DNA of 64,000 bases from Candidatus Calditenuis fumarioli (GCA_030059665.1 JANVYR010000002.1:257441-321440), one strand, 5' to 3'; shown: positions 23,884-57,994, counted from the stretch's first letter. A program made the numbers and translations. The notes: a model not told the origin generated them from the letters alone.

Positions 23884-23916
23884 GAACCGGAGGTCCCGGG
23901 TTCGAGTCCCGGCGGG
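23884..23916 (+). other. Orphan tRNA 3'-half-like fragment (T-arm ccggg-ttcgagt-cccgg plus acceptor 3' strand cgggccc and discriminator g)
   Basis: Canonical T-loop and acceptor 3' strand but no complementary 5' acceptor strand (gggcccg) or D/anticodon arms within 300 nt upstream. Confidence 0.5.
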
Positions 23917-23999
23917 CCCGCGAATATAATAGCTTTCCAATTATGAACGATGATTGGGCCGTAAGCATGAAAACAGAAAAGGAAAGAAAGGGGAGGGGT

Positions 24000-38330: not shown

Positions 38331-39380
38331 TCACCTGACACCTTTCGCGACTGAGCTGACGGACTCCCTGATCTTAGGGATTATCCTCAGCTTCACCGGA
38401 TCCACCCCGAGGAGGTAGGAGGCGTAGAGGCTGACCAGATCGGCCCACATCACCGCGGAGAGCATCTCGAACACCGCGCCGCCTGAGAATGAGACCTCGA
38501 GACCGACGCTAATCGTTCCCTTCAGAGCGTCGAACTGCGCCGAGACGTCCCTGCTCTCGAGCCTGCTCCTCAGGAGAACTGCCGAGTGGTCCGGAAGGGA
38601 GTTGACCCCCTCGATGATGTTGTGCAGGTCTTCCGGGACCCTGAGGACGACCGATCCGCGCTTGGCGTTCTCGGCGAGCTGGTTCCTCAGCCTCAGCGCT
38701 GCGACTGCCATGTGGGACCATCCGACGGCCACCGGGAGGCGGTTGACCGCGAGCTCGGCGCACCTCATCGCGGAGTTCTCCTCGACCTTCGCCTCAGGGG
38801 AGACGACCGACCAGTAAGTGGGCAACCTGTCCGCTGCCTCCGAGACGGAACGGGGAGAGATGGCGGGGCTTCCGGAGACCCTGTGGTAGAGAGCTGCGAG
38901 GACGCCGAACATCTCCGGAACCGCCATGCGAGGCGTCAGTCCCTGCTCGACTTGGATCCAGGGTACGCCGAGCTCAGCGGACCTCCTCTGCAGAGCTCCG
39001 CCGCTGGAGATCGCGACAGCCCTCAGCGACCTCGAGGAGGCCTCCTCCAGCGCGAGCACGCACTCCGTCGTCTCACCCGAGTAGCTCACGATCACCAGCA
39101 GGTCCTGAGGGCCGACCCACCGGGGAAGCCTCGAACCGTCGCAGACGTGTACCGGAAACTCGGCCAGCATCTCCGCGAGGCACTCGAGCATCCTCCCTGC
39201 CATACCGGACCCTCCGAGGCCGTAAACCACCATGGACCTGAAACCATCTCCGGGGAGATCAGCCCTCGAACCGCTCACGAGGCCTGCCTTGTACATCAGG
39301 TGCTGGCGCTCGACCTGCTCGAGCATCGCCGCGTAACGCGGGTCCTTTCTGATCTGCGACGGATCAGGGCCTCCGCTCAT
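38331..39380 (-). CDS. pgi: Bifunctional phosphoglucose/phosphomannose isomerase (SIS domain, crenarchaeal PGI/PMI)
   Basis: VSYSGETTE SIS motif and two-SIS architecture of about 330 aa. Confidence 0.7.
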   Translation of the reverse strand: MSGGPDPSQIRKDPRYAAMLEQVERQHLMYKAGLVSGSRADLPGDGFRSMVVYGLGGSGMAGRMLECLAEMLAEFPVHVCDGSRLPRWVGPQDLLVIVSYSGETTECVLALEEASSRSLRAVAISSGGALQRRSAELGVPWIQVEQGLTPRMAVPEMFGVLAALYHRVSGSPAISPRSVSEAADRLPTYWSVVSPEAKVEENSAMRCAELAVNRLPVAVGWSHMAVAALRLRNQLAENAKRGSVVLRVPEDLHNIIEGVNSLPDHSAVLLRSRLESRDVSAQFDALKGTISVGLEVSFSGGAVFEMLSAVMWADLVSLYASYLLGVDPVKLRIIPKIRESVSSVAKGVR

Positions 39381-40239
39381 CGCCGAGAACCTCCTCCATG
39401 CTCATCCTCCTCAGCTCCACCGGTTGAAAAGCCCTCAGCCGCTCCTCGAGGGATCCGATGAGAGATTCGACCGCATCCTTGACCTTCTCCGGATCCTGGC
39501 CCTCGCCGTGAACGACGACCTCCACCACCGAGACGCCCTCCTCGAGGCCCTTCGGGTGGGACTTGACGTACAGCTCCGGCCTCTCCGATGCGAGCTCCCT
39601 GAGGACAGGGGCCATCGAGGACTCCGGGACTCCCCTCACCAGCAACCCGGCCGCGTAGCGGAAGACCCTCCTCGCCTCGGCCTTGATCAGCGGTACCACC
39701 TCGTTCAGGAAGATGTCCTTCAGCTCCCTCGGCACACCGGGAAGCGAAACGATCCTGGAGCCCTTGTACCTGAGGAGGGACCCGGGAGCGGAGCCGGCCC
39801 TGTTCCGGAGGGCCTTCGCACCCCGGGGGAGCATCGCCATCTTCAGCCTCGAGGGCGTCAGCTCGGCCTCCTTCACCACGCCCATCTCGTACAGCCTGGC
39901 GTACCTCTCCTTCAGCATCTCGAGGGCCTCCGGGTTAAGGACCGTTTTCCTGTTGGTGGCCAGAGCGACCGCCTCCAGGGTCATGTCGTCGTGCGTCGGC
40001 CCGAGGCCTCCGCTGGTTATGATCCACTCGGCCCTTCTCCTGATCGCGTCCCTCACGGCTCCAGCGATCTCCCTGAGGTCATCGCGCACCACCGTCACCC
40101 TCCTCAGCTCCAGTCCGAGGAAGTAGAGCTGCTTGGCGAGCCAGTTGCTGTTGGTGTCCAGAACCTCTCCGTTCAGCACCTCGTTCCCAACCACGATGAT
40201 CTCGGCCGTCGAGGGCCTGACCTTCCTCCTGGACGCCAT
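39364..40239 (-). CDS. CinA-like molybdopterin-binding (MoCF-biosynthesis domain) protein
   Basis: IIVVGNEVLNGEVLDTNSNWLAKQL...ITSGGLGPTHDD; this is the real 3' part of the giant antisense ORF 39364..42657. Confidence 0.6.
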   Translation of the reverse strand: MASRRKVRPSTAEIIVVGNEVLNGEVLDTNSNWLAKQLYFLGLELRRVTVVRDDLREIAGAVRDAIRRRAEWIITSGGLGPTHDDMTLEAVALATNRKTVLNPEALEMLKERYARLYEMGVVKEAELTPSRLKMAMLPRGAKALRNRAGSAPGSLLRYKGSRIVSLPGVPRELKDIFLNEVVPLIKAEARRVFRYAAGLLVRGVPESSMAPVLRELASERPELYVKSHPKGLEEGVSVVEVVVHGEGQDPEKVKDAVESLIGSLEERLRAFQPVELRRMSMEEVLGDERRP

Positions 40240-40341
40240 GCCGGAACCTCTTGGATCTGCGACCTGAAAAGATTGGAGCGGCCCCGCATTCGTCGGAGTT
40301 GATGATACAAATATTGCCTCCGCGGTGGGGATGCGGCGCTC

Positions 40342-42390
40342 ATGGGCGTAGTCGGCCTTCTCAGGGCGAGGGTGGTGGTTCCGAGGAGCAGGGTCGGTGA
40401 GGTGCTGAACGACCTTTACCGCTTCGGCGAGTTCCACGTGACGGAGCAGGACGGAGAGCGCCTGAGGGACGTCGAGGAGCTCTACGCCAGGGCCAGGTCC
40501 CTCTACCTCGAGCTGGAGGCCACCGTCAGGGAGCTCGACGTGACCGTGGAGAGGGGGCCGCTGCAGGTGCTTCTCAGCGGCGACCTGCCCGACCCCGAGG
40601 AGGTGAAGGTCTCGAACGTGGCCGAGGCGCTGGACCTGATCGAGCGGGAGGCGAGGCCGGTTCTCGAGGAGCTGAGGGCCCTGAGGCAGGAGCTCTCGTC
40701 CGTCTCCGAGAGGCTGAAGTCGCTCGAGTCGAGGGCCGAGGTCCTGGAGGCCCTGAGGGGGCTGGGAAGCGTTGGCGCGGAGCTCCGGCAGCTGAGGCGC
40801 TTCCACGTCTCGCTCTTCACGCTCCCCGCTTCGGCCGTCGAGGAGGCCAGAAGGGCCCTCCAGGACTTCGTGGTAGTCCACGAGCGGATAGGGGAGGGGA
40901 GGGCGCTGCTGGCGGTCGTCTGCAGGCCGAGGGACTCGGACCGCGTGATGAGGATCGCGAGGGGGCTCAACCTGACGCCGGTGCAGCTGGATCAGGTGCC
41001 TCAGGACGTCGAGGCGGCCCTTGCCTCCGTGAGGGAGGAGCTCGGCGAGCTGAGGAGGAGGGAGGGTGAGCTGAGGGCGAGGCTCGCGGCGATCAGGGAG
41101 GAGAAGGGCCCGAGGCTCGCGGCCCTGAGGGACCTGGCATCGGAGCTGAGGGAGAGCCTGGACAGGTTCAGGGAAGCGGGCATCAGGAGGGCCGCGGTGA
41201 TCGAGGGTTACCTGCCGGAGGAGATGAAGGACGAGTTCCTCTCGGCGATCGGGAGGAGGGCGTACGTCGAGCTCGAGGAGGTGGAGCACCACACCGGTCA
41301 CGGCGGTGAGGGGCATCAGGAGGAGGCGCCGCCGACGCTGCTGAGGCACAACAGCTTCTCCGAGGCCTTCAGGCCCATCACATCGATGCAGGGCATTCCG
41401 GGCTACGGCGAGATAGACCCGACACCGTACGTCTCCGTCTTCCTCATGGTCTTCTACGGGATAATGTTCGCGGACCTGGGGCAGGGCCTGGTGATAGCCG
41501 CCGTGGGGTTCCTGCTGATGCGGAGGGCAAGGGGCTACCTGAGGGTCTGGGGGAAGCTGCTGTTGCTGCTGGGGATCTCGGCCGCCACCGTCGGGTTCGC
41601 GATACAGGAGGCCTTCGGCTTCGGGATATACAACCTGACGGGCCTGAAACCGGTCATAGAGCTGGTGGAGCACCACGGTGAGGCGAAGGTGCTGAGCCAG
41701 AGTGCGGTGCTGACGCTCTTCAGCTTCGCCCCCCTCCTCGGGTTCGTGCACATCACGCTCGGCATGCTGCTCGGAGCCGTGAAGTACGCCAAGGCCGGAG
41801 AGCTGGGAGAGGCCATCTTCTCCAAGGGAGTCTCGATCGCGATGTACGTGTTCGGCCTGCTGTTCGCCATCGCGTTCATCGGCGCCGGAGGCTTCGACAG
41901 GATGTTCGTCTCGCAGGACCCCGCGCCTCTGATAGGCGTGCCCATAGCGCAGCTCGGAACCATCTCGGTATACGGCGTCCTGGCGTCGCTGGTGCTGCTG
42001 GTGCTCGGGAGACCGATTTCGGGAGCGCTGGGAATAGGTCACAGGACCTCGATCGTCGCGGGGATCGGTGCGGGGCTCCTCGAGGTTCTTGAGAACATAA
42101 TCCACTTCATGTCCAACACGCTCAGCTACCTCCGCGTCCCGATACTGATGGTGATCCACGTGGCCCTGATGATGCTGGTCAACGCCGCCTGGGAGGGCCT
42201 CAGCTGGGCCTCCCTTCCAATACTGTTCATAGGTAACGTGGGGATAATGGCGCTCGAGGGGACGCTCGCCTTCATCCAGGCGCTCAGGCTCCACCTCTAC
42301 GAGTTCTTCAGCAAGTTCTACGAGGGGACCGGTTCGCCCTTCAGGCCCCTGAGGCTCGAGTCGAGGCTGCTCCGTCTGGTCTTCCGGTGA
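40342..42390 (+). CDS. atpI: A/V-type ATP synthase subunit I
   Basis: N-terminal coiled-coil, 7-8 C-terminal TM helices, LSYLRVPILMVIH proton-channel motif. Confidence 0.85.
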   Translation: MGVVGLLRARVVVPRSRVGEVLNDLYRFGEFHVTEQDGERLRDVEELYARARSLYLELEATVRELDVTVERGPLQVLLSGDLPDPEEVKVSNVAEALDLIEREARPVLEELRALRQELSSVSERLKSLESRAEVLEALRGLGSVGAELRQLRRFHVSLFTLPASAVEEARRALQDFVVVHERIGEGRALLAVVCRPRDSDRVMRIARGLNLTPVQLDQVPQDVEAALASVREELGELRRREGELRARLAAIREEKGPRLAALRDLASELRESLDRFREAGIRRAAVIEGYLPEEMKDEFLSAIGRRAYVELEEVEHHTGHGGEGHQEEAPPTLLRHNSFSEAFRPITSMQGIPGYGEIDPTPYVSVFLMVFYGIMFADLGQGLVIAAVGFLLMRRARGYLRVWGKLLLLLGISAATVGFAIQEAFGFGIYNLTGLKPVIELVEHHGEAKVLSQSAVLTLFSFAPLLGFVHITLGMLLGAVKYAKAGELGEAIFSKGVSIAMYVFGLLFAIAFIGAGGFDRMFVSQDPAPLIGVPIAQLGTISVYGVLASLVLLVLGRPISGALGIGHRTSIVAGIGAGLLEVLENIIHFMSNTLSYLRVPILMVIHVALMMLVNAAWEGLSWASLPILFIGNVGIMALEGTLAFIQALRLHLYEFFSKFYEGTGSPFRPLRLESRLLRLVFR

Positions 42391-42433
42391 TGGGAGCATC
42401 ACCCTTTTCAGATGAGAGGACACCGGCCACTCG

Positions 42434-43630
42434 GTGAGCGAGGTCCCCGCGATTAGGGGTGGAAGGCCCGTCAGGACCAGACCTTTCCCCAGCTGGCCCC
42501 AGTGGGGCGAGGAGGAGGAGAGGAACCTGCTCGAGGTGCTGAGGTCGGGCGTCTGGGGGATAGGAGGGAGGAGGGCCTTCGAGTTCGCGGCGGAGTTCGC
42601 CAAATACTCGGGGTGCAGATACGGCGTTCCGTGCGCCAACGGCACGGTGGCCCTCAAGGTGGCCCTCAGGGCGGTCGGTGTGGGCGAGGGGGACCTCGTG
42701 GTGACGTCTCCCTACACCTTCATCGCCACCGCGTCAGTCCTCCTGGAGCTCGGAGCCGTCCCCGTGTTCGCCGACCTGATGGAGGGCGGTCTCCACATGG
42801 ACGTGACGACCGTCCGGGACGGACTTGAGGTGAAGGCGCTTCTACCCGTTCACATAGCAGGCATGCCGAACCCGATGGACGCTATCTGGGAGGTCTCGAG
42901 GGAGCGCGGGATACCTGTGGTGGAGGACGCGGCACAGGCCCACGGCTCCGAGTGGAGGGGGCGGAGGGCCGGATCGCTCGGGAACGCGGGCTGCTTCAGC
43001 TTCCAGTCGAGCAAGGTGATGACGAGCGGTGAGGGAGGGTGCATCACGACCGACTCGGAGGAGCTCGCGGACCTCTGCTGGTCCCTCATCAACTGCGGCA
43101 GGACGAGGACCGCCGACTGGTACGAGCACGAGCTGATAGGGTACAACTACAGGATGACCGAGTTCCAGGCTGCGGTGCTGCAGGCGCAGCTAACCCGACT
43201 CGACGCGCAGATCGAGAGGAGGCAGAGGAACTATGGGATCCTCCTCGAGGAGTCCTCGTCCCTCAGGGCGCTGGAGGTGCTCCGGCCGCCGGAGGGCACG
43301 ACCCGGTTCAACGGGTACCTGGTGCCAGTCAGGATCGACAGGTCCAGGGCCGGTGACGTGGACAAGAGGAGGGTCGTGGAGGCGCTGAGGGCTGAGGGGA
43401 TCCCGGCGAGCCCCGGCTACACGGTCCCGCTCAACAGGCATCCCGGCATCGCGAGGTACTTCCTCTCCAAGCTTCCCGACCGGTCCCTGCTGGGCCCGCT
43501 GCCGAACGCCGAGGCCGCGGTGAGGGACGTCTTCTGGCTGCCCCATGTAGTGCTGCTCGGAGATCAGGAGGACGTTCTGGACGTCGTTAAGGCGCTGGTG
43601 AAGGTCGATGCAGAAATAGAGAATCTATAG
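42434..43630 (+). CDS. DegT/DnrJ/EryC1/StrS-family PLP-dependent sugar aminotransferase
   Basis: CANGTVALKVAL and SFQSSKVMTSGEGG (Lys-PLP) motifs. Confidence 0.85.
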   Translation: MSEVPAIRGGRPVRTRPFPSWPQWGEEEERNLLEVLRSGVWGIGGRRAFEFAAEFAKYSGCRYGVPCANGTVALKVALRAVGVGEGDLVVTSPYTFIATASVLLELGAVPVFADLMEGGLHMDVTTVRDGLEVKALLPVHIAGMPNPMDAIWEVSRERGIPVVEDAAQAHGSEWRGRRAGSLGNAGCFSFQSSKVMTSGEGGCITTDSEELADLCWSLINCGRTRTADWYEHELIGYNYRMTEFQAAVLQAQLTRLDAQIERRQRNYGILLEESSSLRALEVLRPPEGTTRFNGYLVPVRIDRSRAGDVDKRRVVEALRAEGIPASPGYTVPLNRHPGIARYFLSKLPDRSLLGPLPNAEAAVRDVFWLPHVVLLGDQEDVLDVVKALVKVDAEIENL

Positions 43631-43861: not shown

Positions 43862-44455
43862 GTGATGGTGGAGAGCTCTGAGCAGAGGAACGAGGGCAGG
43901 ATCGACCGGCTCCTGAAGGAGATCAGCGAGCTGAAGGGGCCGATCGAGAGGACGCTGATGGACGTCAGGGAGATACTCGCGGCCGTGGACTCTCCCCTCA
44001 GGGCCGTGCCGACGGTACAGCCGCAGCAGAGGTCCGAGCGGACGGGAAAGGAAGCTCCAGCCAAGCCCCAGGAGGCGACGAGGGACCAGAACAACCGCGC
44101 ACCGGCAGCCGAGGCGTCGGTACCTGCGTCCACGGGGTTCGACGTGCTGACCTTCAACGCGTTCGCGATGACCGAGCTTCTGGTCAAGTTGCTGGGTAAG
44201 TGGCACCTCGAGCGGCTGATCATGTCGCTGGGGAGGGACGAGGCCGTCAAGGAGTCGCTGAGGAAGGCCCTCGAGTCGATAACCGCGACCGAGCCGATAC
44301 CGGATCACCCTCCCCTGGGCGTGGCGCCGAGGGACGCGGTTCAGGCAGGGGTCGTCCTGCTCAGCCTCCTCTTCGAGAACCCGAGGAACCCAGCGATAGG
44401 GATACTGGCGCAGTCGCTCGACAAGCTGCTCTCCCCTTACCTGGTCAAGAGGTGA
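43862..44455 (+). CDS. Hypothetical coiled-coil protein, first gene of archaellum cluster
   Basis: Preceded by AT-rich promoter-like region (aaagtttaataataag, aaaattttaaag); N-terminal coiled coil; no TM. Confidence 0.35.
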   Translation: MMVESSEQRNEGRIDRLLKEISELKGPIERTLMDVREILAAVDSPLRAVPTVQPQQRSERTGKEAPAKPQEATRDQNNRAPAAEASVPASTGFDVLTFNAFAMTELLVKLLGKWHLERLIMSLGRDEAVKESLRKALESITATEPIPDHPPLGVAPRDAVQAGVVLLSLLFENPRNPAIGILAQSLDKLLSPYLVKR

Positions 44456-44460
44456 GGGCC

Positions 44461-44937
44461 GTGGGGTCGTCGATCATCTCGGAGGGGCTCGTCCTGATCG
44501 CTGCGGTGATCGCGGCGACCTCGATGGCGATGGCCGTGATCAGCAACCTGAACCAGCTCCAGGAGCTCCAGACCTCGGTGGTGCGCGACCTGAGGGACAG
44601 GGCAATGACCAACCTCGCGGTCGTTGCGGTCCTCTACGAACCCTCTGGCCCGGAGCTCAGGGTCTACCTGAAGAACGTCGGCACCAGGGCGCTCACGCCA
44701 TCAGACATACAGGGGATGACCGTGATGCTCGTCTCCAGCAGCTGGTCAGGAGCCCTGAGGTACTCGGCCGACGGATCGCCGGGGACGTGGAGCGTCAGCG
44801 GTTCGCTGAAGACGGTCCTCAGGGGAGACACCTTCCTCATCAGGCTTCACCTTCCGACATCGCTCGGCAGGGGGGAGCACGTGCTGAGGCTGGTCCTCCC
44901 CAACGGCTCGGTCTTCGAGGACGTGTTCTCCCTGTGA
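44461..44937 (+). CDS. flaG: Archaellum protein FlaG-like
   Basis: N-terminal hydrophobic helix followed by beta-rich domain; position before FlaF/FlaH. Confidence 0.45.
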   Translation: MGSSIISEGLVLIAAVIAATSMAMAVISNLNQLQELQTSVVRDLRDRAMTNLAVVAVLYEPSGPELRVYLKNVGTRALTPSDIQGMTVMLVSSSWSGALRYSADGSPGTWSVSGSLKTVLRGDTFLIRLHLPTSLGRGEHVLRLVLPNGSVFEDVFSL

Positions 44938-44946
44938 GGTGGGAGG

Positions 44947-45456
44947 TTGGGAGGGCTGGGTGCGATCTACGCGGCCTCGCTCGTCCTGACGGTCCTGATG
45001 ATAGTATCCTTCGGCGTCGTCCACTCGCTCGTCACGTCGTACGGCTCGCTGCTGCACGAGGTAAGGCGGGTTGGGGATCCTCGGGTGAGGCTCGAGGGCA
45101 CGGGCCTCCGGTTCAACGGGACCCACGTCCTCGCGGACTTCCGGAACGCCGGGACCGGCAGGATCAGGGCGAGCGAGTTCCTCCTGTCGGACGTTGTGCT
45201 GCGCTACAGGACGGATAGCGGTGGGGTCGCGACGCTGGTCCTCTCCTGCTGCGACGGCTGGTCGCTTGCCAACGTCTCCCTCAACGGAGGCCCGGAGCTG
45301 CTCAACCCCGTCGACGTGAGAACCGGGAAGGGGGTGATCGACCCCACCGAGACGGTCACCATCGCAATTCCCGTGCCGGCGGACCTGGACCCCACGGGGC
45401 CGTTGATGGTGGAGGTGGTAACGCCCGAGGGGGCGAGGGGGGTGGTTTCCGGATGA
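44947..45456 (+). CDS. flaF: Archaellum protein FlaF-like
   Basis: N-terminal TM then beta-sandwich-like domain; position immediately upstream of flaH. Confidence 0.45.
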   Translation: MGGLGAIYAASLVLTVLMIVSFGVVHSLVTSYGSLLHEVRRVGDPRVRLEGTGLRFNGTHVLADFRNAGTGRIRASEFLLSDVVLRYRTDSGGVATLVLSCCDGWSLANVSLNGGPELLNPVDVRTGKGVIDPTETVTIAIPVPADLDPTGPLMVEVVTPEGARGVVSG

Positions 45457-46175
45457 ATGGGGAGTCGGGGGCGAAGGTCCTGCTCAGGACCTACAACGAG
45501 GAGCTGGACAGGAAGCTCGGCGGCATACCGCTGCCCTCTGTGACGCTGATAGAGGGGCCGAACGACTCCGGCAAGAGCGTCCTCCTCTACCACTTCGTCC
45601 ACGGATGCATCAAGGCCGGCCTCAGGACGTGCCTCCTCTCCAGCGAGGGAGGTGGGAAGGTGATCGTCGAGTCGGTGGAGAACCTGGGTCTGGACCTGAA
45701 GAGGGCCTTCCTGATGGGCGATCTGGTGGTGGTGCAGCTGAGGGTCGAGCCCAGCGAGCAGACCGCTGAGGAGAGGAGGTCGATGCTCCACGCGCTCCTC
45801 GCGTACTTCGAGCGGAAACGTGAGAGGTTCGGGGTCTTCGCGGTGGACTCGCTGACGGCGCTGACCATAGGCCTGGACGAGGGAGACCTGCTCGGCTTCT
45901 TCTCGCGGCTGAGGGAGATGAGGGAGAAGGACGGGCTGAGCTTCTTCGTCACGGTCCACACCTACTCGTTCCCTCAGGACCTCCTGGTCAGGATCAGGGC
46001 GATGGCCGACACGCACCTCTCGCTGAGCATAAGGGAGGTCTCGGGGCAGCTGCTGAAGACGCTGCAGGTCCTGAAGATCAGGGGAGCGTCGAAGTCGACC
46101 GGCGACGTGATCACCTTCGAGGTCGAGCCGGGCTTCGGGATCAAGGTGCTTCCGTACACGCAGGTGAAGGTCTGA
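45453..46175 (+). CDS. flaH: Archaellum ATP-binding protein FlaH (RecA/KaiC-like)
   Basis: Walker A GPNDSGKS, 240 aa. Confidence 0.8.
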   Translation: MNGESGAKVLLRTYNEELDRKLGGIPLPSVTLIEGPNDSGKSVLLYHFVHGCIKAGLRTCLLSSEGGGKVIVESVENLGLDLKRAFLMGDLVVVQLRVEPSEQTAEERRSMLHALLAYFERKRERFGVFAVDSLTALTIGLDEGDLLGFFSRLREMREKDGLSFFVTVHTYSFPQDLLVRIRAMADTHLSLSIREVSGQLLKTLQVLKIRGASKSTGDVITFEVEPGFGIKVLPYTQVKV

Positions 46176-49135
46176 TGTCGTCGCAGCAGGGCCTCAGGCA
46201 GAGCGACCTCCTCGCCCGGTACCCGCACCTCAGGGATTACCTCACCGAGCTTCAGCGGAGGGGTTTCAGGCCTCCGACGTTCGCGGTCCAGCTCTCGAGG
46301 GAGATGAGGGACCTGAACGAGGTGAACGTACTCTACCCGATAGGCGACCCCTACTTCGTGCACGTCTACTCGGTTCCCGGCGAGAAGTGGAGGAGGTACG
46401 TGGTCGTCCAGCCGGAGATCGAGGGAGAGGCCTGGAAGGCGCTGCAGTACGTCGACGAGGCCCTCGCCTACCGCCTGCTGAAGGTCGACGAGCAGGAGGT
46501 GAAGGAGGACAGGGCGAAGGTCCTCGAGCGCCTCCTCTCCGAGGTCGTGAGGCCCGACCCGTCCCTCAAGCGCGGCGAGTTCAGGCCCCTGAGGCGCAGA
46601 GGGGTTGTGGTGCAGATACTCGCGGAGCCGAGGCTTGCGGAGGGGATAAGGCACTACGTCCTGATGGAGAAGACCGCCCACGGCGCAATAGAGCCACTGA
46701 TCAGGGACCCCTACATCGAGGACATCAGCTGCACCGGCATCGGGCCGGTCTTCATAGTCCACAAGGTCTTCGAGTCCTGCGTCACCAGCATCGAGTTCAG
46801 GGACGAGAAGGAGCTGGACGAGTTCGTGGTGAGGCTCTCCATCAAGTGCGGTAGGCCCGTTAGCTTCAGGAACCCGATCGTGGACGCCCAGCTCCCCGAC
46901 GGATCGAGGGTCAACATCGTCTACGGCTCCGACGTGAGCAGGAGGGGGTCCAACTTCACCATCAGGAAGTTCTCCGACAAACCGATCAGCATAACGCAGC
47001 TCGTGAAGTGGAACGTCCTCAGCGCGGAGATGGCCGCCTACCTCTGGATGCTCCTCGAGTCGAACATGAACGTCTGGTTCTGTGGCGAGACCGCGTCGGG
47101 CAAGACGACGCTCCTCAGGGCCGCGGCCGTCTTCATCAGGCCGACGTACAAGATAGTGTCGATAGAGGACGTTCCGGAGATAGTCGTGCCTCACGAGAAC
47201 TGGGTCAGCGAGGTGACGAAGAGGTCCGAGACCGGTGTGGGTGGGGTCGAGCTCTTCGACCTGCTCAAGGCGGCGCTGAGGCAGAGGCCGAACTACATCA
47301 TCGTGGGCGAGATACGCGGTGCCGAGGCCTCGGTCGCGTTCCAGGCGATGCAGTGCGTCGACGACGCCCTCCTCCACACCTACAGGGGTCCGGTGTGGAT
47401 CTCGGAGCTCTACAGGGCATACGCGCACCTTGCGGAGCTCGACGGTGACGGCTCGGCTCTGGTCAGGCTCCCCTCAGGGATCAGGGTGCCCGTGACGACG
47501 CCGGGGAGGAGCGAGGCCTGGGTCGGAGAGGTGGTGGGGCTGAAGAGGATGGAGGCTGGGGCGACGGTGAGGGTCGAGCTGCCCAACGGCCTCTCGATGA
47601 GGGTGACGCCGAACCACCGCTTCGTGGTCAGGTCCAACGGAGGCGAGGAGGAGGTGACCGCGGCCGAGCTCCTCGAGCTCTGGAGGTCGGGCATGAGGTC
47701 CGTCAAGCTTTCCCTCAGGAGGCCTGCGGTCCTGGCCCCACGACAGAACCTCCCGATGCCCAGAAGGTACGCGATCCCAGCCAGCGGAGGGACGCTTAGC
47801 TACCTCATCGGCCGCCTGATCGGAGGCGACTACCTCGTCAGGGAGGACGGAGGGTACGCGCTGGTCTCGAGGGTCAGAACGGGGTCGGAGGCGGGGAGGC
47901 TCGAGGGCCTGCTGGGGTCGATCACCGACTGCGAGCTGAGGTTCAGGTCCAAATCGCTCAAGGGCTCGGTGAAGGTCCTGGCGCGCGGCATCCCTGCGAG
48001 GCTCGTCCACTGGGCGGCGAGCAGGGGCCTCCTGGTGGGAGACGGCAGGACGTTCTGGGCGGTGGCCGATCGGGAGGCACGGCTGAGGTGGGACGCCCTC
48101 GCGGCGGGCCTGGTAGACGCACTGGAGGGATGGGAAGGGAAACCGCAGGGTCCGGACCCGGTCAGGAGGGCGCTGGACCTCCTCTGGTCGATCCGGGAGC
48201 TGGGCCTCGGGGACTGCGCCGAGCTCAGGGTGGGGTACGGGTTCCATGGGTCGGCGGAGCTGGAGAGGGCAGCGGGGAACCTCGGGATCCGGGTCAGGAG
48301 AGTCGGCGGGAGGTCGTTCTCGGTCTCGGTGGAGCGCGGCGTCGACTGGGAGGCCTCCGGAGGATCGCTCGAGGTGCTGGAGCACTTCAGGGTTCCGGCG
48401 GACGAGTGGAGCTGGGCCGTGCACGACCTCTGGAGGGCCGGGATCAACGTCCTCTCCTTCAGGGAGGGAGACCAGGTCTTCCTCCAGCCCGCACAGGACT
48501 GGGTCAGGGTCTCCGACGTCTCGCCGTCCGGGCCGGCGACGGTCTACGACCTCGTGCTCGAGGGAGGGAGCTACTACATGGCCGGGACGGGGCCGGTTCT
48601 CCCGGTGATGGACACGGGCCACGGCGTGATCTCGACCTTCCACGCGGGAAGCGTCCAGAAGCTGATCCAGCGGCTGGTCAGCGATCCGATCAACGTCCCG
48701 AAGACGTTCATAGACAACCTGAACTGCGTCGTCCTCCAGAGCGCTGTCATCCACCCCCAGACGGGGAAACTCGAGAGGAGGGTGCTGAGCTTCAACGAGA
48801 TCCTCGGCGTGGACTCCGAGACGGGAGGGGTCAACTACGTCGAGGTCTTCAGCTGGAACCCCGTGACCGACATGCACGAGTTCAGGGGCGAGGGCACGAG
48901 CTACCTCCTCGAGGAGAAGGTGGGAAGAATGCGCGGTATACCCCGGAGGGAGATGAGGAAAATCTACAGGGAGCTGTACACCAGGGCCGAGTTCATCAGG
49001 AAACTGATCGCGCTCGGCGTCTTCGAGTACAAGGACGTCTTCAACGCCGTGGCCCGGGCCTACTCGGTCGGCGTCGAGAGGGCTCTGGAGGAGGTGGAGG
49101 TGGTTGCTCGGCAGAGGGCGGAGCAGCGACGCTGA
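46175..49135 (+). CDS. flaI: Archaellum assembly ATPase FlaI, intein-containing precursor
   Basis: Walker A GETASGKTT, IIVGEIRGAEA Walker B, TGHGVISTFHAG; 986 aa versus about 560 aa typical because of 420-aa insertion. Confidence 0.85.
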   Translation: MSSQQGLRQSDLLARYPHLRDYLTELQRRGFRPPTFAVQLSREMRDLNEVNVLYPIGDPYFVHVYSVPGEKWRRYVVVQPEIEGEAWKALQYVDEALAYRLLKVDEQEVKEDRAKVLERLLSEVVRPDPSLKRGEFRPLRRRGVVVQILAEPRLAEGIRHYVLMEKTAHGAIEPLIRDPYIEDISCTGIGPVFIVHKVFESCVTSIEFRDEKELDEFVVRLSIKCGRPVSFRNPIVDAQLPDGSRVNIVYGSDVSRRGSNFTIRKFSDKPISITQLVKWNVLSAEMAAYLWMLLESNMNVWFCGETASGKTTLLRAAAVFIRPTYKIVSIEDVPEIVVPHENWVSEVTKRSETGVGGVELFDLLKAALRQRPNYIIVGEIRGAEASVAFQAMQCVDDALLHTYRGPVWISELYRAYAHLAELDGDGSALVRLPSGIRVPVTTPGRSEAWVGEVVGLKRMEAGATVRVELPNGLSMRVTPNHRFVVRSNGGEEEVTAAELLELWRSGMRSVKLSLRRPAVLAPRQNLPMPRRYAIPASGGTLSYLIGRLIGGDYLVREDGGYALVSRVRTGSEAGRLEGLLGSITDCELRFRSKSLKGSVKVLARGIPARLVHWAASRGLLVGDGRTFWAVADREARLRWDALAAGLVDALEGWEGKPQGPDPVRRALDLLWSIRELGLGDCAELRVGYGFHGSAELERAAGNLGIRVRRVGGRSFSVSVERGVDWEASGGSLEVLEHFRVPADEWSWAVHDLWRAGINVLSFREGDQVFLQPAQDWVRVSDVSPSGPATVYDLVLEGGSYYMAGTGPVLPVMDTGHGVISTFHAGSVQKLIQRLVSDPINVPKTFIDNLNCVVLQSAVIHPQTGKLERRVLSFNEILGVDSETGGVNYVEVFSWNPVTDMHEFRGEGTSYLLEEKVGRMRGIPRREMRKIYRELYTRAEFIRKLIALGVFEYKDVFNAVARAYSVGVERALEEVEVVARQRAEQRR
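47354..48613 (+). mobile_element. Intein with LAGLIDADG endonuclease domain inside FlaI (between AMQ and TGHG)
   Basis: Starts with Cys (CVDDALL), block B TPNHRF, LAGLIDADG-like LSYLIGRLIGGDY and LLVGDGR, block G-like VYDLVLEGGSYYMAG; ends ...VLPVMD before Thr (+1). Confidence 0.7.
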
Positions 49136-49139
49136 GCTG

Positions 49140-50561
49140 ATGATGGCCTACCTGAGGGCCCTCGCCACCGAGGACCTGGACGACCTGACGTACCTGGACC
49201 TGGTGGCCTCCACCTCGGGCCGCATGGGATCCGTTGTGAGACCGCTGGCCCAGGCGAGGAACCTCTTCCGTAACTGGGGATTCGGGCTGGGGAAGGCCCT
49301 CAGGTCAGTTGCATCGACCGTGGCCGACGTGAGGGTGAGGGGCCTGGTGGAGAGGATGGGGAAGTCGGTGGAGGCCGGGATGAGGTCGGTCGCCTACGTC
49401 AGGATGGAGTACGAGCGGATGAGGGACATAGGAAGGAGGGAGATGGAGAACGCGCTGGAGCACGCCAAAACGCTCGGCGACCTCTACATGACCCTGATCA
49501 GCACCTTCACCTTCCTGATAGCGGCCTTCGTCATCGCCTCGAGCACCTTCAGCGGCATCAGCGGATCTACCGTGCTCTCGGCCGTCCTCGCCGGGATCTG
49601 CGCCTCCTCGGTCTTCGTCGTCATCCTCACCTGGAGGTACGTGGGCACGGACTCGATCGTCTCAACCGGGCCCTTCGCGCCTCCGTGGATCAGGACGGTG
49701 GAGTGGGTGGCGCCCTACGCGGTGGTCGGATCGCTGGTCGCATCGCTCCTCTCCGCGCTACTCCTCGGCCCCGGTACCGGGAGCCTGCTCAACGCTTTCA
49801 TCGGCGGAGCCCTCGCATCCCTCGGCCTCTCCAGCTGGATCAGATCCAGGAAAATACCGGCGCTCGACGCAGACCTGCCGATCCTCTTCAGGGCGCTCTC
49901 CGAGGTGATCTCCCACTTCAAGGACCCGGTCGAGGCGATAGGCGTGGTGTCGGAGGGCCAGTCGAAACCGCTCCGTCGGCTGCTCGAAAAGGTCAGGTCG
50001 CTCCTCAGGGGAGGGGTGGAGCTGGGGGCCGCGATGAGGTCGGCCTTCTCCGCCACCGGCAGCAGGCTCGCCTCAGACGCGTCCGAAGTTTTGGTGGAGG
50101 GGATAAGGTTGGGGGTTCCGTCGTCCGGGGTCGGTGGGGTCATCTACCTCTACCTGAACGACAAGCTCTCGCTGAGGAGGAAGAGGTCCCAGGTCGCCGG
50201 TTACCTCAAGGGCGTCGCTTACCCCTCGGTGGCCACCTCGGCAGCCATCATGGGAGTCGTCGGGTCGCTCTACTCGCTGCTCCTCGACGCGGTAACCATG
50301 GTGAGGAACTTCCTGCCCCTGAGCCCCGACCTGCCGCTGGAGCTGATGTGGCGAGTGATGGCCGTCTCCCTCGTTGCGATCTCCCTCACCTGCGCCATGT
50401 TGGTCTACCTGATCGAGGGCTCCTCCAGGGCCCACCTCCTCCTCCACCTCGGGCTTATGCTGCTGACCTCCATGGTCCTGTTCTACGCCACGGCGACCGG
50501 GACGAAGGCGCTGCTGGAGTCGATGACCTCGCACCTGTCGCGCATAAGGTCGATGTGGTGA
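49140..50561 (+). CDS. flaJ: Archaellum membrane protein FlaJ (TadB/GspF-like)
   Basis: Polytopic membrane protein with two cytoplasmic domains, directly after flaI stop. Confidence 0.8.
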   Translation: MMAYLRALATEDLDDLTYLDLVASTSGRMGSVVRPLAQARNLFRNWGFGLGKALRSVASTVADVRVRGLVERMGKSVEAGMRSVAYVRMEYERMRDIGRREMENALEHAKTLGDLYMTLISTFTFLIAAFVIASSTFSGISGSTVLSAVLAGICASSVFVVILTWRYVGTDSIVSTGPFAPPWIRTVEWVAPYAVVGSLVASLLSALLLGPGTGSLLNAFIGGALASLGLSSWIRSRKIPALDADLPILFRALSEVISHFKDPVEAIGVVSEGQSKPLRRLLEKVRSLLRGGVELGAAMRSAFSATGSRLASDASEVLVEGIRLGVPSSGVGGVIYLYLNDKLSLRRKRSQVAGYLKGVAYPSVATSAAIMGVVGSLYSLLLDAVTMVRNFLPLSPDLPLELMWRVMAVSLVAISLTCAMLVYLIEGSSRAHLLLHLGLMLLTSMVLFYATATGTKALLESMTSHLSRIRSMW

Positions 50562-50565
50562 GAGC

Positions 50566-51012
50566 TTGCAGGAGCTGCTCGGCGCCCTTAGCATCGCCTC
50601 CGCGCTTGTGGTGCTGGTGCTGATCTGGGTTACCGCGAAACCCGTTAGGAGGCACGGTACGCCGACGGCCGCCTGGAGGGCTGAGGAGAGGGTTGCGGTG
50701 ACGCGTCAGGCCCACCGCGAACCGGAGGCGAAAGGTCTGCCGGAGGAGAGGGCCGAGGCCGTGGAAATGGGGAAGGAGGCCGCAGAGGAGAAGCCGGCAA
50801 CGGAGCAGCAACCCACATCCGTCGAGGGCGGGTCGCGGCAGCAGGGATCGGAAACCCAGGAGGTCGCGGCGGACGCCGGTCAGCAGGAGACGGTAAGCAG
50901 CGACGAGGAGGTCGAGGAGGAGCTGGTGAGGGAGCTCTCGGAGACGCTGAGCCTCTACCGGCAGCTGCTGGAGGAGCTGAACAAGCTGAAATCAGGAGGT
51001 GGTTCGAAGTAG
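50566..51012 (+). CDS. Hypothetical membrane-anchored coiled-coil protein
   Basis: Single N-terminal TM, acidic linker, C-terminal coiled coil; last gene of archaellum cluster. Confidence 0.4.
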   Translation: MQELLGALSIASALVVLVLIWVTAKPVRRHGTPTAAWRAEERVAVTRQAHREPEAKGLPEERAEAVEMGKEAAEEKPATEQQPTSVEGGSRQQGSETQEVAADAGQQETVSSDEEVEEELVRELSETLSLYRQLLEELNKLKSGGGSK

Positions 51013-51519
51013 CTCCAGAGCCCTCATCCCGAGCTCGTGGTACTTGTCGCCGTGGCGCTGAACGTTCGCTATCACCCTGCCCTTCGACGCGGACAGCATC
51101 TCCTCGGAGCTGAGGAGGGCCTCTCCGATCGCGATGGCCTGAGATCCCCTCTCCTCCCTCACCACCACCACGTCGCCCCGCGAGAAGGTGCCCTCGATCC
51201 GGACGATGCCGGGCCTCATCACGGCGGCGCCGTTGAGCACGTGCGGCACCGCTCCGAGGTCCACGTAGACGGCCGGGTACCTTGAGAGCAGGGGACCGTT
51301 GACCCTCTCGGCGGCTATCGGCAGCAGAAGACCCCTGTGTTCGAAGAGGACGAAACCGTCGAGGACCAGTACCCTCCGCTCCTCGGCCTCCATCACAGCG
51401 CCGGTCCTGCACTCAAGCTCCAGGCCCTGAGACCTCAGCTTCTCCCGCAGCGCCCTCAGGTCGGACTTGCTCAGCCGGTGGAAGCGCAACGCCTGCCCGG
51501 TCAAGGTGTGCGGAGCCAA
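50992..51519 (-). CDS. PUA-domain RNA-binding protein
   Basis: GAAVMRPGIVRIEGTFSRGDVVVVREERGSQAIAIGEAL PUA motif; true start may be the internal Met at 51393. Confidence 0.6.
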   Translation of the reverse strand: MAPHTLTGQALRFHRLSKSDLRALREKLRSQGLELECRTGAVMEAEERRVLVLDGFVLFEHRGLLLPIAAERVNGPLLSRYPAVYVDLGAVPHVLNGAAVMRPGIVRIEGTFSRGDVVVVREERGSQAIAIGEALLSSEEMLSASKGRVIANVQRHGDKYHELGMRALELLRTTS

Positions 51520-51550
51520 GCCTTATCTCCTATCCGACGGTGAACGGAGC

Positions 51551-51844
51551 GTGAGGAGGCTCAGCGAGAGGGCCGTCAGGAAGGCGCTGGAGGGTCTCCC
51601 CAAGTGGAGGCTTGCGGGGAAGAGGATCGTCAGGGTCGTGAGGTACGAGGGCTTCATGCCCGGCGTGGAGCTGCTGAACGAGATCGCGAGGCTGGCGGAG
51701 CAGATGGAGCACCACCCCGACGTTACCGTCTCTTACGGAAGGATGAGGATCTCGGTAACGACGCACGACGTCGGAGGCCTGACCGAGCTGGACTTCCGGC
51801 TGGCGGAAAGGATCGAGGAGCTCCTGAGATCTAAAGGGCTCTGA
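51551..51844 (+). CDS. Pterin-4a-carbinolamine dehydratase
   Basis: EHHPD signature; the ATG at 51467 would overlap the divergent PUA gene, so the in-frame GTG at 51551 is preferred. Confidence 0.65.
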   Translation: MRRLSERAVRKALEGLPKWRLAGKRIVRVVRYEGFMPGVELLNEIARLAEQMEHHPDVTVSYGRMRISVTTHDVGGLTELDFRLAERIEELLRSKGL

Positions 51845-52916
51845 GGGCACCCTCCGCGTCGAGGACCACCGCGATCCCCAGCCTCACCACGGCCTCGAGG
51901 TCCCTCAGGTCCAGCATGAGGTTCGGCGAGTGGAGGTACCTGCAGGGCGTGGCCAGCACCACCGTCGGTATCCCCCTCCTCTGGAGGTGTATCCTGCCGG
52001 CATCAGTCCCGCCGCCCGTCATCACCTGGACCTGGTACGGGATGCCCCTCGACTCGGCGAGGCCGATGAGCCACCTGACGAGGCCCGGGTTGGTCAGCAT
52101 GGTGGAGTCCATGGCCCGTATGGCGGCGCCCGCACCGAGCCGCGTGACGTGGTCCTGCGGAGGGACTCCCGGAACGTCGGCCGCGACCGTGCACTCCAGG
52201 ACGACAGCGAGGTCCGGATCCACCTGCTCCACCACCACGGAGGCCCCTCTCAGGCCCAGCTCCTCCTGCACCGTGAAGACGGCGTAGAGCTCTGGACGCT
52301 CGGAAGAGGACGCCAGCTCCCGGGCTATGGCGACCTCCGCAGCGCACCCGGCCCTGTCGTCGAGGGCCTTCGAGATGACCCTGTTGCCGGAGAGGTGAAA
52401 GTTGGGAGGGAAGGTGACGTAGCTCCCGACCCTGATCCCCATCGCCTCAGCCTCGGCCCTCGAGGACGCTCCAACGTCGACGTACAGGTCCTTAACGTTC
52501 GGGACGGTCTTCATCTCCTCGGGCGTCATGACGTGCGGCGGCTTCACGCCGATGCATCCATCTACCGGGGAGGAGCCGTGGACGACGACCCTCTGGCCGA
52601 TCAGCACCCTCGGGTCCAGCCCGCCGAGCGGCGCTATGTGGAGGAACCCGGACTCGTCGACGTGCCTGACGATCATGGCCACCTCGTCCATGTGGGCCAC
52701 CAGCATCACCCTCGGTCCCCTGCCCCGGCCTATGCGGAAGAAGAGGTTGCCGAGGTTGTCCCTCCACCTCTCGGAGGAGATTGGTGCGAGGGCCTCCTCG
52801 ATCCTCGAGGCGACGTCTTTCTCCCACGCAGGAGGGCCGTATGCCGATGCGAGCGCCTTCAGGGTTCCCAGAAGCTCCTGCCCCTCGACCACCACGTACG
52901 TGACGTGACGCCTCAT
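51831..52916 (-). CDS. M42-family aminopeptidase (TET/FrvX-like)
   Basis: VMLVAHMDEV, KALDDRAG, FTVQEELGLRGA metal-ligand motifs. Confidence 0.85.
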   Translation of the reverse strand: MRRHVTYVVVEGQELLGTLKALASAYGPPAWEKDVASRIEEALAPISSERWRDNLGNLFFRIGRGRGPRVMLVAHMDEVAMIVRHVDESGFLHIAPLGGLDPRVLIGQRVVVHGSSPVDGCIGVKPPHVMTPEEMKTVPNVKDLYVDVGASSRAEAEAMGIRVGSYVTFPPNFHLSGNRVISKALDDRAGCAAEVAIARELASSSERPELYAVFTVQEELGLRGASVVVEQVDPDLAVVLECTVAADVPGVPPQDHVTRLGAGAAIRAMDSTMLTNPGLVRWLIGLAESRGIPYQVQVMTGGGTDAGRIHLQRRGIPTVVLATPCRYLHSPNLMLDLRDLEAVVRLGIAVVLDAEGALRAL

Positions 52917-54956: not shown

Positions 54957-55030
54957 TGGGCCCGGTGGGATTCGAACCCACGACCTCCCGGTTATCAGCC
55001 GGGCGCTCCGCCAGGCTGAGCTACGGGCCC
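54957..55030 (-). tRNA. tRNA-Ile (anticodon GAU), no intron, CCA not encoded
   Basis: Reverse complement folds as GGGCCCG-TAGCTCAGCCTGGCGGAGCG-CCCGG CTGATAA CCGGG-AGGTC-GTGGGTTCGAATCCCAC-CGGGCCC-A. Confidence 0.9.
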
Positions 55031-57872: not shown

Positions 57873-57994
57873 CGGGGTCCGGTCATAGGGCAGGGGCCAC
57901 ACCCGGACTCATTCCGAACCCGGAAGTTAAGCCCTGCCCGCACGGCGAGTAGTGGGGTGGGCGACCACCCGCGAAAGCCGTGTGCTGGACCCCC
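57873..57994 (+). rRNA. rrf: 5S ribosomal RNA
   Basis: CCCGGACTCATTCCGAACCCGGAAGTTAAGCC loop C/helix III signature; terminal helix GGGGTCCGG/CTGGACCCC; followed by CCCCTTTT terminator; AT-rich box (attaaat) about 25 nt upstream. Confidence 0.9.

Follow-up and report, generated by a model that had tools for sequence, protein, structure and literature searches.

The archaellum locus and its interrupted ATPase gene

The locus lies in a 64,000-nucleotide stretch of DNA from the hot-spring archaeon Candidatus Calditenuis fumarioli, hereafter the window, and all features given below are on its plus strand unless stated otherwise. Two archaellin-fold genes resembling flaG or flaF (44200..44937, PF01917 32.9 bits, E 1e-07, cut-off 29.5; and 44947..45456, PF01917 19.4 bits, E 0.0014, below the cut-off) precede flaH, as they do at the locus L002. 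flaH, coding for a KaiC-like ATPase (45453..46175; Pfam PF06745, E 2.7e-20), is directly followed by flaI (arlI; 46175..49135), whose ATG start codon overlaps the flaH stop codon, and this gene order is repeated in L002 and L003. Directly downstream is flaJ, coding for a T2SSF-type membrane protein (49104..50561; Pfam PF00482). Its start is ambiguous, a TTG at 49104 giving a 32-nt overlap with flaI, whereas the gene call in L002 begins just past the flaI stop codon.

flaI is an uninterrupted open reading frame of 986 codons, insert included. The precursor matched the NCBIfam equivalog NF058587 in two stretches, scoring 604.4 bits (cut-off 550), as well as Pfam T2SSE. Judged by the equivalog model and the intact flaG/F-flaH-flaI-flaJ operon, the host gene is that of the archaellum ATPase FlaI/ArlI, which bears out the identification made in an earlier, sequence-only reading of this DNA. 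The precursor is identical to a public protein from an Aigarchaeota metagenome-assembled genome (P0005), recorded as 'ATPase, T2SS/T4P/T4SS family' with Pfam PF00437 as its sole annotation.

The N-extein (aa 1-393; 46175..47353) contains the Walker A motif GETASGKTT (47084..47110) and the Walker B region NYIIVGEIRG (47291..47320), ends in FQAMQ and aligns to the solved Sulfolobus acidocaldarius FlaI (4ii7) up to Q350. The C-extein (aa 814-986; 48614..49135) opens with the His box TGHGVISTFHA (48614..48646) and aligns to 4ii7 from T351 on. Between FQAMQ and TGHGV lies an intein of 420 residues (precursor residues 394-813; 47354..48613; 1260 bp). It begins with Cys1 (TGC, 47354..47356) and ends, after ...LPVM, with Asp420 (GAC, 48611..48613), and the first C-extein residue is Thr814, the +1 nucleophile (ACG, 48614..48616). 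These residues and the position of the insert agree to the base with what had been proposed. Splicing in silico yielded a sequence that aligns to 4ii7 without a gap across Q350|T351 (FQAMQTGH), with Walker A, the VGEIRG of Walker B and the His box all intact; the predicted splice-junction peptide is GAEASVAFQAMQTGHGVISTFHAGSVQK. The insertion point, Gln393/Thr814, lies 14 residues past the glutamate of Walker B and abuts the His box on its N-terminal side, and therefore the unspliced precursor should be inactive as an ATPase.

The same junction exists in nature. An intein-free orthologue, P0007 (566 aa, locus L001), reads ...FQAMQTGHGV... and lacks exactly these 420 residues, that is 1260 bp in frame, and its exteins are 89% identical to the present FlaI. 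As a shift by one residue would fail to give the P0007 junction, the boundaries of the insert are unambiguous. At the nucleotide level, the L001 exteins are 96.5% identical to those of the intein carrier L002. Five protein clusters, drawn from separate assemblies, share the 986-residue architecture with an intein of exactly 420 residues, so that an error of frame or assembly does not account for the insert.

An antisense frame of 467 codons (47474..48877, minus strand), Pro/Arg-rich in translation, is a shadow of the sense frame and not a gene, as had been suspected. Its GC content by codon position (0.91/0.49/0.64) mirrors that of the sense frame (0.66/0.51/0.90), and a Pfam search with it returned no family.

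Fold and conserved residues of the insert

We modeled the insert with AlphaFold2 (pLDDT 93.1, pTM 0.91) and compared the model with known structures using Foldseek. The PhoVMA, TliVMA, PI-PfuI and PI-TkoII inteins were retrieved with E values of 5e-15 to 1e-11, and 25 intein structures with a probability of 1.00. The best PDB matches were endonuclease-containing inteins (7qst, 7qsu, 1dq3, 2cw7 and 1um2), along with mini-inteins. For the endonuclease fold, the matches were 2dch (I-Tsp061I; E 2.8e-4), I-DmoI entries (E ~1e-2) and the full-length PI-PfuI and PI-TkoII. Model and sequence together thus identify the insert as an intein with a HINT splicing domain and a two-motif LAGLIDADG homing-endonuclease domain.

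The N-terminal HINT half, beta-rich in the model, spans approximately intein residues 1-125 (47354..47728) and contains block B, TPNH, at residues 85-88 (T85, P86, N87, H88; 47606..47617). The endonuclease domain follows, again within approximate limits (residues 126-365; 47729..48448). Its motif 1, LSYLIGRLIGGD (residues 148-159; 47795..47830), ends in Asp159 and sits on model helix H146-157; motif 2, LAAGLVDALEG (residues 249-259; 48098..48130), sits on helix H246-259 and carries the acidic residue Glu258. Block B and the LAGLIDADG-like blocks expected from the sequence were thereby located. The C-terminal HINT part, from about residue 366 to 420 (48449..48613), contains block F, VYDL (48542..48553), a Tyr-Tyr motif (Y407, Y408; 48572..48577) and the terminal PVMD (48602..48613). 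Asp399 is presumably the block F:4 acidic residue, since other inteins carry a comparable FDL or YDL motif. The penultimate residue is Met419 rather than His, and the block F His position is occupied by Ser.

Sixteen family members, with identities down to 27%, were aligned (alignment A1). Invariant residues in the N-terminal HINT half are C1, P86, N87, H88 and F90, position 85 being Thr or Ser; those around endonuclease motif 1 are G153, R154, L155, G157, G158 and D159; and those of the C-terminal part are V397, Y398, D399, L400, Y407, Y408, G411, P417 and D420. The acidic residue of motif 2 is kept only in the subgroup with inteins of 416-420 residues. A candidate homing target, taken from the intein-free L001, is GCCTTCCAGGCGATGCAG|ACGGGCCACGGCGTG.

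Curated intein models hardly recognize this insert. The N-terminal models PF14890 (17.8 bits against 35.8) and TIGR01445 (16.9 against 24.5) remained below their thresholds, the C-terminal models of Pfam and NCBIfam, including TIGR01443, gave no match, and a phmmer search of the PDB with the insert returned only a marginal match to 4o1s. As its public annotation is generic and the standard intein models miss the insert, such a 110-kDa Aigarchaeota 'FlaI' is easily misread.

The sequence-only reading had itself raised the formal possibility that the 420 residues form a lineage-specific accessory domain kept in mature FlaI. We found nothing specific in its favor. Against it speak the HINT and LAGLIDADG fold, the nucleophile present at each junction and the position inside the ATPase core, between Walker B and the His box. 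A close orthologue, with 97.5% extein identity to the carrier P0009, lacks precisely this insert, and lengths at the one insertion point range from 162 to 690 residues, as is usual for inteins that may or may not carry an endonuclease module. We regard this explanation as extremely improbable.

A second LAGLIDADG open reading frame is present at about 24 kb of the window. We considered that it might code for an rRNA-intron endonuclease and rejected this idea, as an rRNA gene is absent there.

A family of Asp-ended inteins at one FlaI site

A word-indexed homologue search with the insert alone returned four clusters and missed its own protein. Relatives were found by an extein-based homologue search combined with an exhaustive profile search, the latter yielding 60 proteins at E <= 0.001. 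All 25 intein relatives at the same FlaI site, including those below 30% identity, end in Asp. The family spans three phyla, with carriers in Aigarchaeota, Caldisphaera and Methanosalsum. The penultimate position holds M, E, Q, Y or F, and never His (0/25), while the Tyr-Tyr motif occurs in every member (25/25) and a Pro at -4 is conserved in the Aigarchaeal group. The Asp codon GAC is a single transition away from the Asn codon AAC, yet Asp was kept in all 25. By these comparisons the Asp ending characterizes the family and does not signal decay. The Met-Asp end noted from the sequence is real; what does not hold is its standing as the oddity of a single gene, given the 25 family members and the acceptance of Asp-ended inteins in the literature (PMC4031507).

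Copies can decay nonetheless, as in the family member P0124 Tyr replaces Cys1 and TGAG replaces TGHG. This example, the non-canonical block G and the subthreshold scores of the curated intein models would be consistent with a degenerate intein, in which the replacement of Asn by Asp and of His by Met abolished step 3 of splicing, leaving flaI effectively a pseudogene and the archaellum non-working. We regard this as very improbable. Against it stand the invariance of Asp in 25/25 members across three phyla and below 30% identity, the intact reading frame with exactly 420 residues in five clusters, the whole flaG/F-flaH-flaI-flaJ operon and the selection acting on the host protein. Between two intein-bearing lineages, dN/dS was 0.32 for the intein (0.21-0.34 per part; 0.33 for the endonuclease domain and 0.21 for the C-terminal HINT part) and 0.09-0.10 for both exteins, at a dS of approximately 0.65-0.8. 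The low extein values between carriers indicate that FlaI was kept functional by strong selection with the intein in place, which would require the intein to splice.

As to the history of the insertion, the identities of the inteins run parallel to those of the exteins in a comparison of five relatives. Around the junction, L001 and L002 differ by no more than a marginal excess of substitutions (p 0.03-0.09, depending on the size of the interval), and we do not build on this as a sign of co-conversion. The conserved endonuclease of the 420-residue subgroup and the intein-free allele nested among carriers fit a cycle of gain by homing and precise loss.

One member belongs to Methanosalsum natronophilum, which we take to be a soda-lake mesophile. 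If so, the family occurs in more than one kind of environment, and the idea that heat alone makes Asp workable is weakened. The same member bears on whether splicing might be conditional, with the intein serving as a post-translational switch, responsive to temperature, pH or redox, on archaellum assembly or rotation. On general chemical grounds, cleavage at an Asp should respond to pH and temperature. Vertical retention with the host over a dS of about 0.7 would also suit a switch, and conditional splicing has been described for archaeal inteins such as that of RadA (PMC11409957). Nevertheless, a selfish homing cycle explains long retention equally well, the family spans environments if the Methanosalsum host is indeed mesophilic, and the intein is dispensable, since a near-identical lineage has an intein-free allele. 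We therefore consider such a switch quite improbable.

Proposed splicing route and comparison with known inteins

Taken together, the sequence comparisons and the model make it very probable that FlaI is interrupted, at the site equivalent to Q350|T351, by a working intein that follows the standard four-step (class 1) scheme and includes a LAGLIDADG endonuclease. Class 2 (KlbA-type, with Ala1 and Cys+1 attacking the N-junction) is ruled out by Cys1 and Thr+1, and class 3 (Cys at block F:4, WCT triplet) by Asp399 at F:4. In step 1, Cys1 would convert the Gln-Cys bond to a thioester by an N-S acyl shift, helped by Thr85 and His88 of block B and Asp399 of block F. The Thr+1 hydroxyl would then attack the thioester to form a branched ester (step 2). 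Cyclization of Asp420, presumably to a succinic anhydride where Asn would give a succinimide, would release the intein (step 3), and an O-N shift would produce FQAMQ-TGHG and active FlaI (step 4). The position of the insert, its fold, its conserved catalytic residues, the purifying selection and the empty site are observed, and from them we infer splicing itself, the chemistry of step 3 and the endonuclease activity.

As the penultimate His and the block F His are both missing, other residues must assist step 3, a role that the invariant Tyr-Tyr motif might fill. In the Asp-ended RIR1 intein of Carboxydothermus hydrogenoformans (Chy), cyclization reportedly could not fully account for C-terminal cleavage, and an Asp-to-Ala mutant is said to have still cleaved C-terminally. 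These reports, the missing cyclization-promoting histidines and the conserved Tyr-Tyr (25/25) and Pro -4 (Aigarchaeal group) could point to splicing with a different chemistry at the C-junction, through assisted hydrolysis or aminolysis or through reordered steps, in place of simple Asp cyclization. For inteins ending in Asp, Gln or Glu, cyclization of these residues is accepted for step 3, and 'other mechanisms are possible'; among inteins at large, the penultimate His (G:6) is common without being obligatory (PMC4031507). Asp is chemically capable of cyclizing, and as it is strictly invariant its side chain as the nucleophile is the simplest reading; we find another chemistry rather unlikely. 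A further proposal is that the FlaI-site inteins form a distinct mechanistic subclass, in which the invariant Asp with Tyr-Tyr replaces Asn/His/His and conditional splicing gates motor assembly, given that Asp cyclization depends on protonation and temperature. It too seems unlikely.

Under the standard four-step route, FlaI activity in carrier lineages would depend on post-translational splicing, which is relevant to heterologous expression, and the splicing step could, speculatively, regulate the archaellum. The interest for splicing chemistry is moderate, and intein biochemistry stands to gain more from the family than from the single gene. Its 25 natural Asp-ended sequences devoid of the penultimate His form a comparative set for step 3 without Asn and the usual histidines. 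The 162-residue mini-intein of the family (P0132) is suited to structural and kinetic work.

The precedent for an Asp end compatible with protein splicing is the Chy RIR1 intein, which by description has a natural C-terminal Asp and reportedly splices. It is a single, bacterial case in a ribonucleotide reductase, whereas the FlaI family is archaeal and Asp is invariant in its 25 members. The best structural matches, PhoVMA (7qst), TliVMA (7qsu/7qss), PI-PfuI (1dq3), PI-TkoII (2cw7) and PI-SceI (1um2/1ef0), with E values of 5e-15 to 2e-06, share with the FlaI intein a two-part HINT domain split by a two-motif LAGLIDADG endonuclease, Cys1, the TxxH of block B and an insertion point within a conserved nucleotide-binding motif, the host being an ATPase or an enzyme of replication. 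They differ in sequence (9-14% identity), in ending in His-Asn rather than Met-Asp, and in their hosts.

Closest by host are the class 2 KlbA inteins (Mja KlbA, 2jmz), which reside in the same VirB11/FlaI ATPase superfamily (COG0630). The HINT fold of 2jmz matches that of the FlaI intein (Foldseek E 3.8e-4), and KlbA likewise has no penultimate His, G:6 being Ser (PMC7765530). However, KlbA is a mini-intein with Ala1, a Cys+1 that attacks the N-junction directly and an Asn end, whereas the FlaI intein has Cys1, Thr+1, an Asp end and an endonuclease domain. 2jmz was not among the matches of a sequence search aimed at its flanking residues. An 830-residue metagenomic FlaI, P0097, carries a canonical intein at the identical point (FQAMQ|...|TGH), also with Thr+1 and YD in block F. 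Unlike the Asp-ended family, this intein has 260 residues, Ser1 and a His-Asn end and is recognized by PF14890. As it falls outside the 60 proteins (E <= 0.001) of the Asp-family profile search, it represents a separate lineage.

Novikova et al. (2016, PMC4760082) count 21 inteins in archaeal VirB11/COG0630 ATPases, from Crenarchaeota, Euryarchaeota and other Archaea; their text gives neither insertion sites nor terminal residues. With this set, the Asp-ended family in three phyla and the canonical intein of P0097, the archaellum ATPase had been overstated as an unusual host. In the literature searched on FlaI, ArlI or archaellum in combination with intein, the present one was not described. 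This intein is new and unannotated, and both its host family and its Asp ending have precedents.

The flaI gene and its insert

flaI lies at 46175..49135 (+) as an uninterrupted ORF of 986 aa. The FlaI equivalog model NF058587 (NCBIfam) matched it in two stretches with 604 bits (cut-off, 550 bits), and the Pfam T2SSE match was limited to residues 167-394. The last residue of FQAMQ is 393, and the first of TGHGV is 814. The 420 residues between them, encoded at 47354..48613 (+), begin with CVDDALL and end with LPVMD, the junction codons being TGC for Cys1, GAC for Asp420, and ACG for Thr+1, the first C-extein residue. The sequence-only reading had described the ORF and its insert with these same boundaries and terminal residues and was borne out throughout.

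The surrounding archaellum operon, whose order is also found in relatives, comprises two archaellin-fold genes (44200..45456), the KaiC-like flaH (45453..46175), flaI, and flaJ (T2SSF; 49104..50561). The start of flaJ is ambiguous (49104..49135): TTG at 49104 gives 485 aa and a 32-nt overlap with the end of flaI, as called in the related locus L003, and the call in the intein-carrying locus L002 starts 5 nt past the flaI stop, giving 473 aa. The GC content by codon position of an antisense ORF at 47474..48877 (0.91/0.49/0.64) mirrored that of the sense frame (0.66/0.51/0.90), and no Pfam family matched it; it is thus a shadow ORF, in keeping with its earlier dismissal as an artefact. Other long shadow ORFs, at 39364..42657 (-) and 45974..47428 (-), run antisense to GC3-rich genes. 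Only the C-terminal ~280 aa of the former (1097 aa), with a MoCF_biosynth domain, look real, the rest being antisense to the V-ATPase subunit I gene (40342..42390).

Intein sequence models scored the insert below their cut-offs (PF14890, 17.8 bits against 35.8; TIGR01445, 16.9 against 24.5), and curated C-terminal intein models did not match it. A search with the FlaI sequence spliced in silico retrieved the window's own public protein P0005 (Aigarchaeota MAG), four more 986-aa relatives, and a 566-aa orthologue, P0007. The last reads ...FQAMQTGHGV... with nothing inserted at the junction, which speaks against the alternative, raised earlier, of a lineage-specific FlaI domain retained in orthologues. 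Its locus, L001, and the carrier locus L002 have exteins 96.5% identical in DNA and differ by a precise 1260-bp block; the empty site reads GCCTTCCAGGCGATGCAG followed directly by ACGGGCCACGGCGTG. The spliced sequence aligned without gaps, across VAFQAMQTGH, to the sequence of the S. acidocaldarius FlaI crystal structure 4ii7. The junction corresponds to Q350 and T351 of 4ii7, 14 residues past the Walker B Glu336, with the His box directly after.

AlphaFold2, given an alignment of 16 sequences, modelled the insert with a mean pLDDT of 93.1 and a pTM of 0.91. The best PDB matches of the model were the endonuclease-containing inteins PhoVMA, TliVMA, PI-PfuI, and PI-TkoII (E 5e-15 to 1e-11), with PI-SceI at ~2e-06; many mini-inteins came next, then the free LAGLIDADG enzymes I-Tsp061I and I-DmoI. 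In the 16-sequence alignment, which extends down to 27% identity, Cys1, Pro86-Asn87-His88 of block B (TxxH; Thr or Ser at position 85), Gly153-Arg154-Leu155, Gly157, Gly158, and Asp159 of the first LAGLIDADG motif, Val397-Tyr398-Asp399-Leu400 of block F, Tyr407-Tyr408, and Asp420 were invariant. We regard the empty site, the restored host, the fold, and the catalytic positions as decisive for an intein with a LAGLIDADG domain, as first proposed. It is very probably competent for splicing. Both acidic motif residues, Asp159 and Glu258, are present in the subgroup of 416-420 aa; in that of 375-428 aa the second varies and is mostly Arg. Judging from these residues, the endonuclease is plausibly active in the former subgroup and decayed in the latter.

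Asp-ended inteins at one FlaI site

An exhaustive profile search with the intein over 1.84 billion representative proteins yielded 13 matches at E <= 1e-10, and all complete ones were FlaI-type ATPases with the insert between FQAMQ and TGH. The C-terminal Asp was found in 25/25 tabulated family members (162 to 690 aa). The non-canonical end singled out by the sequence-only reading is thus a conserved family trait. The penultimate residue is Met in 14 members, Glu in 5, Gln in 3, Tyr in 2, and Phe in 1, and never His. Block B ([TS]xNH[RK]F) and block F ([VT]YD[LI]...YY) occur in all 25, with Ser, Gly, Lys, or similar at the usual block F His position. By source names, the hosts are Aigarchaeota/Caldarchaeales, Caldisphaera (Thermoproteota), and Methanosalsum natronophilum (Halobacteriota). 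As the Asp codon GAC is one transition from the Asn codon AAC, the invariance of Asp over such divergence indicates selection for Asp itself.

Several members depart from the window's architecture. P0132 (711 aa) carries an Asp-ended mini-intein of 162 aa without endonuclease, the obvious experimental object for the family, and P0129-P0131 and P0133 (942-1200 aa) carry Asp-ended inteins of 575-690 aa with large extra inserts. In P0124 (767 aa, Logan assembly), also of this family, Tyr replaces Cys1, TGAG replaces TGHG, and the N-terminus is scrambled; this flaI/intein copy is probably decaying. At the identical site, the 830-aa FlaI P0097 (Logan assembly) contains a 260-aa intein unrelated to this family, which starts with the canonical Ser1 and ends in His-Asn. 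Thus, at least two intein lineages have invaded this site.

Selection, residence, and other elements of the window

The case for splicing is an indirect one. Between the window and L002, both carriers (dS ~0.65-0.8), dN/dS was 0.098 for the N-extein, 0.085 for the C-extein, and 0.32 for the intein overall (N-terminal HINT part, 0.34; endonuclease region, 0.33; C-terminal HINT part, 0.21). The strong purifying selection on a FlaI split inside its ATPase core implies that the halves must be joined. Purifying selection also acts on the intein, its endonuclease region included, and argues that splicing and endonuclease activities have both mattered. Across five close relatives, intein identity tracked extein identity (extein/intein, 93%/84%, ~92%/~80%, and ~89%/~68% in pairs), and the intein has thus co-diverged with its host. 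GC3 was 0.90 in the intein and 0.91 in the host, consistent with long residence. Substitutions near the junction showed a marginal excess only (p 0.03-0.09). The intein-free P0007 is nested beside the carrier P0009, with exteins 97.5% identical. This suggests that the intein was lost precisely, or that its presence is polymorphic, as a homing cycle would predict. Past flaJ, the L001 contig diverges in gene order (L001 3986..4909 compared with window 50992..51850 and L002 7254..8114). L001 has a PUA gene that is truncated and then an opposite-strand archaellin gene; the window and L002 have PUA, pterin-4a dehydratase, and M42 peptidase genes. This loss of synteny reflects rearrangement of the DNA or a join made during assembly.

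The C-terminal ~220 aa of a 390-aa ORF at 24000..25172 (-) match LAGLIDADG_3 (PF14528, E 1e-17), and both motifs, LAYIAGAIVGDGT and IAMFLRGFFDSEGY, are intact. We saw no HINT blocks in this ORF and no rRNA gene nearby, which suggests a homing-endonuclease gene that stands alone and was acquired recently. The ORF sits in a ~1-kb low-GC island (~23900..25000; 42-48% GC versus 65-70% in the flanks), unlike the compositionally ameliorated FlaI intein. A Cas3-like helicase (PF22590, DEAD, Helicase_C) at 13047..14876 (+) points to a type I CRISPR-Cas module within the window's first quarter. The Rfam gathering-level matches across the 64 kb were a lone 5S rRNA gene (57875..57993, +) and one tRNA (54957..55030, -), with no others.

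Proposed splicing route and comparison with known inteins

On the pattern of class 1 inteins (PMC4031507), Cys1 would perform an N-S acyl shift assisted by Thr85/His88 and Asp399, and the N-extein would be transferred to Thr+1. Asp420 would then cyclise, presumably to an anhydride, releasing the intein, and an O-N shift would leave a native Gln-Thr bond. [quoted passage not shown] The invariant Tyr-Tyr pair is a candidate replacement for the two missing histidines. The junction tryptic peptide expected from spliced FlaI, GAEASVAFQAMQTGHGVISTFHAGSVQK, would arise solely by splicing.

In a 2004 paper, an Asp-terminated intein was reportedly able to splice. Our literature search found no description of an intein in FlaI/ArlI, and the public annotation of P0005 does not mention one; what is new is thus an unannotated FlaI intein, the kind of element being already known. 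The sequence-only reading overstated how unusual the host site is, as 21 inteins are on record in archaeal VirB11/COG0630 ATPases (PMC4760082). The class 2 KlbA inteins have hosts in the same ATPase superfamily as FlaI; the window intein lacks Ala1 and so differs from class 2, and lacks Cys at F:4 and so differs from class 3. Relative to these systems, a terminal Asp that is invariant family-wide without the assisting histidines is a useful, not a revolutionary, addition.
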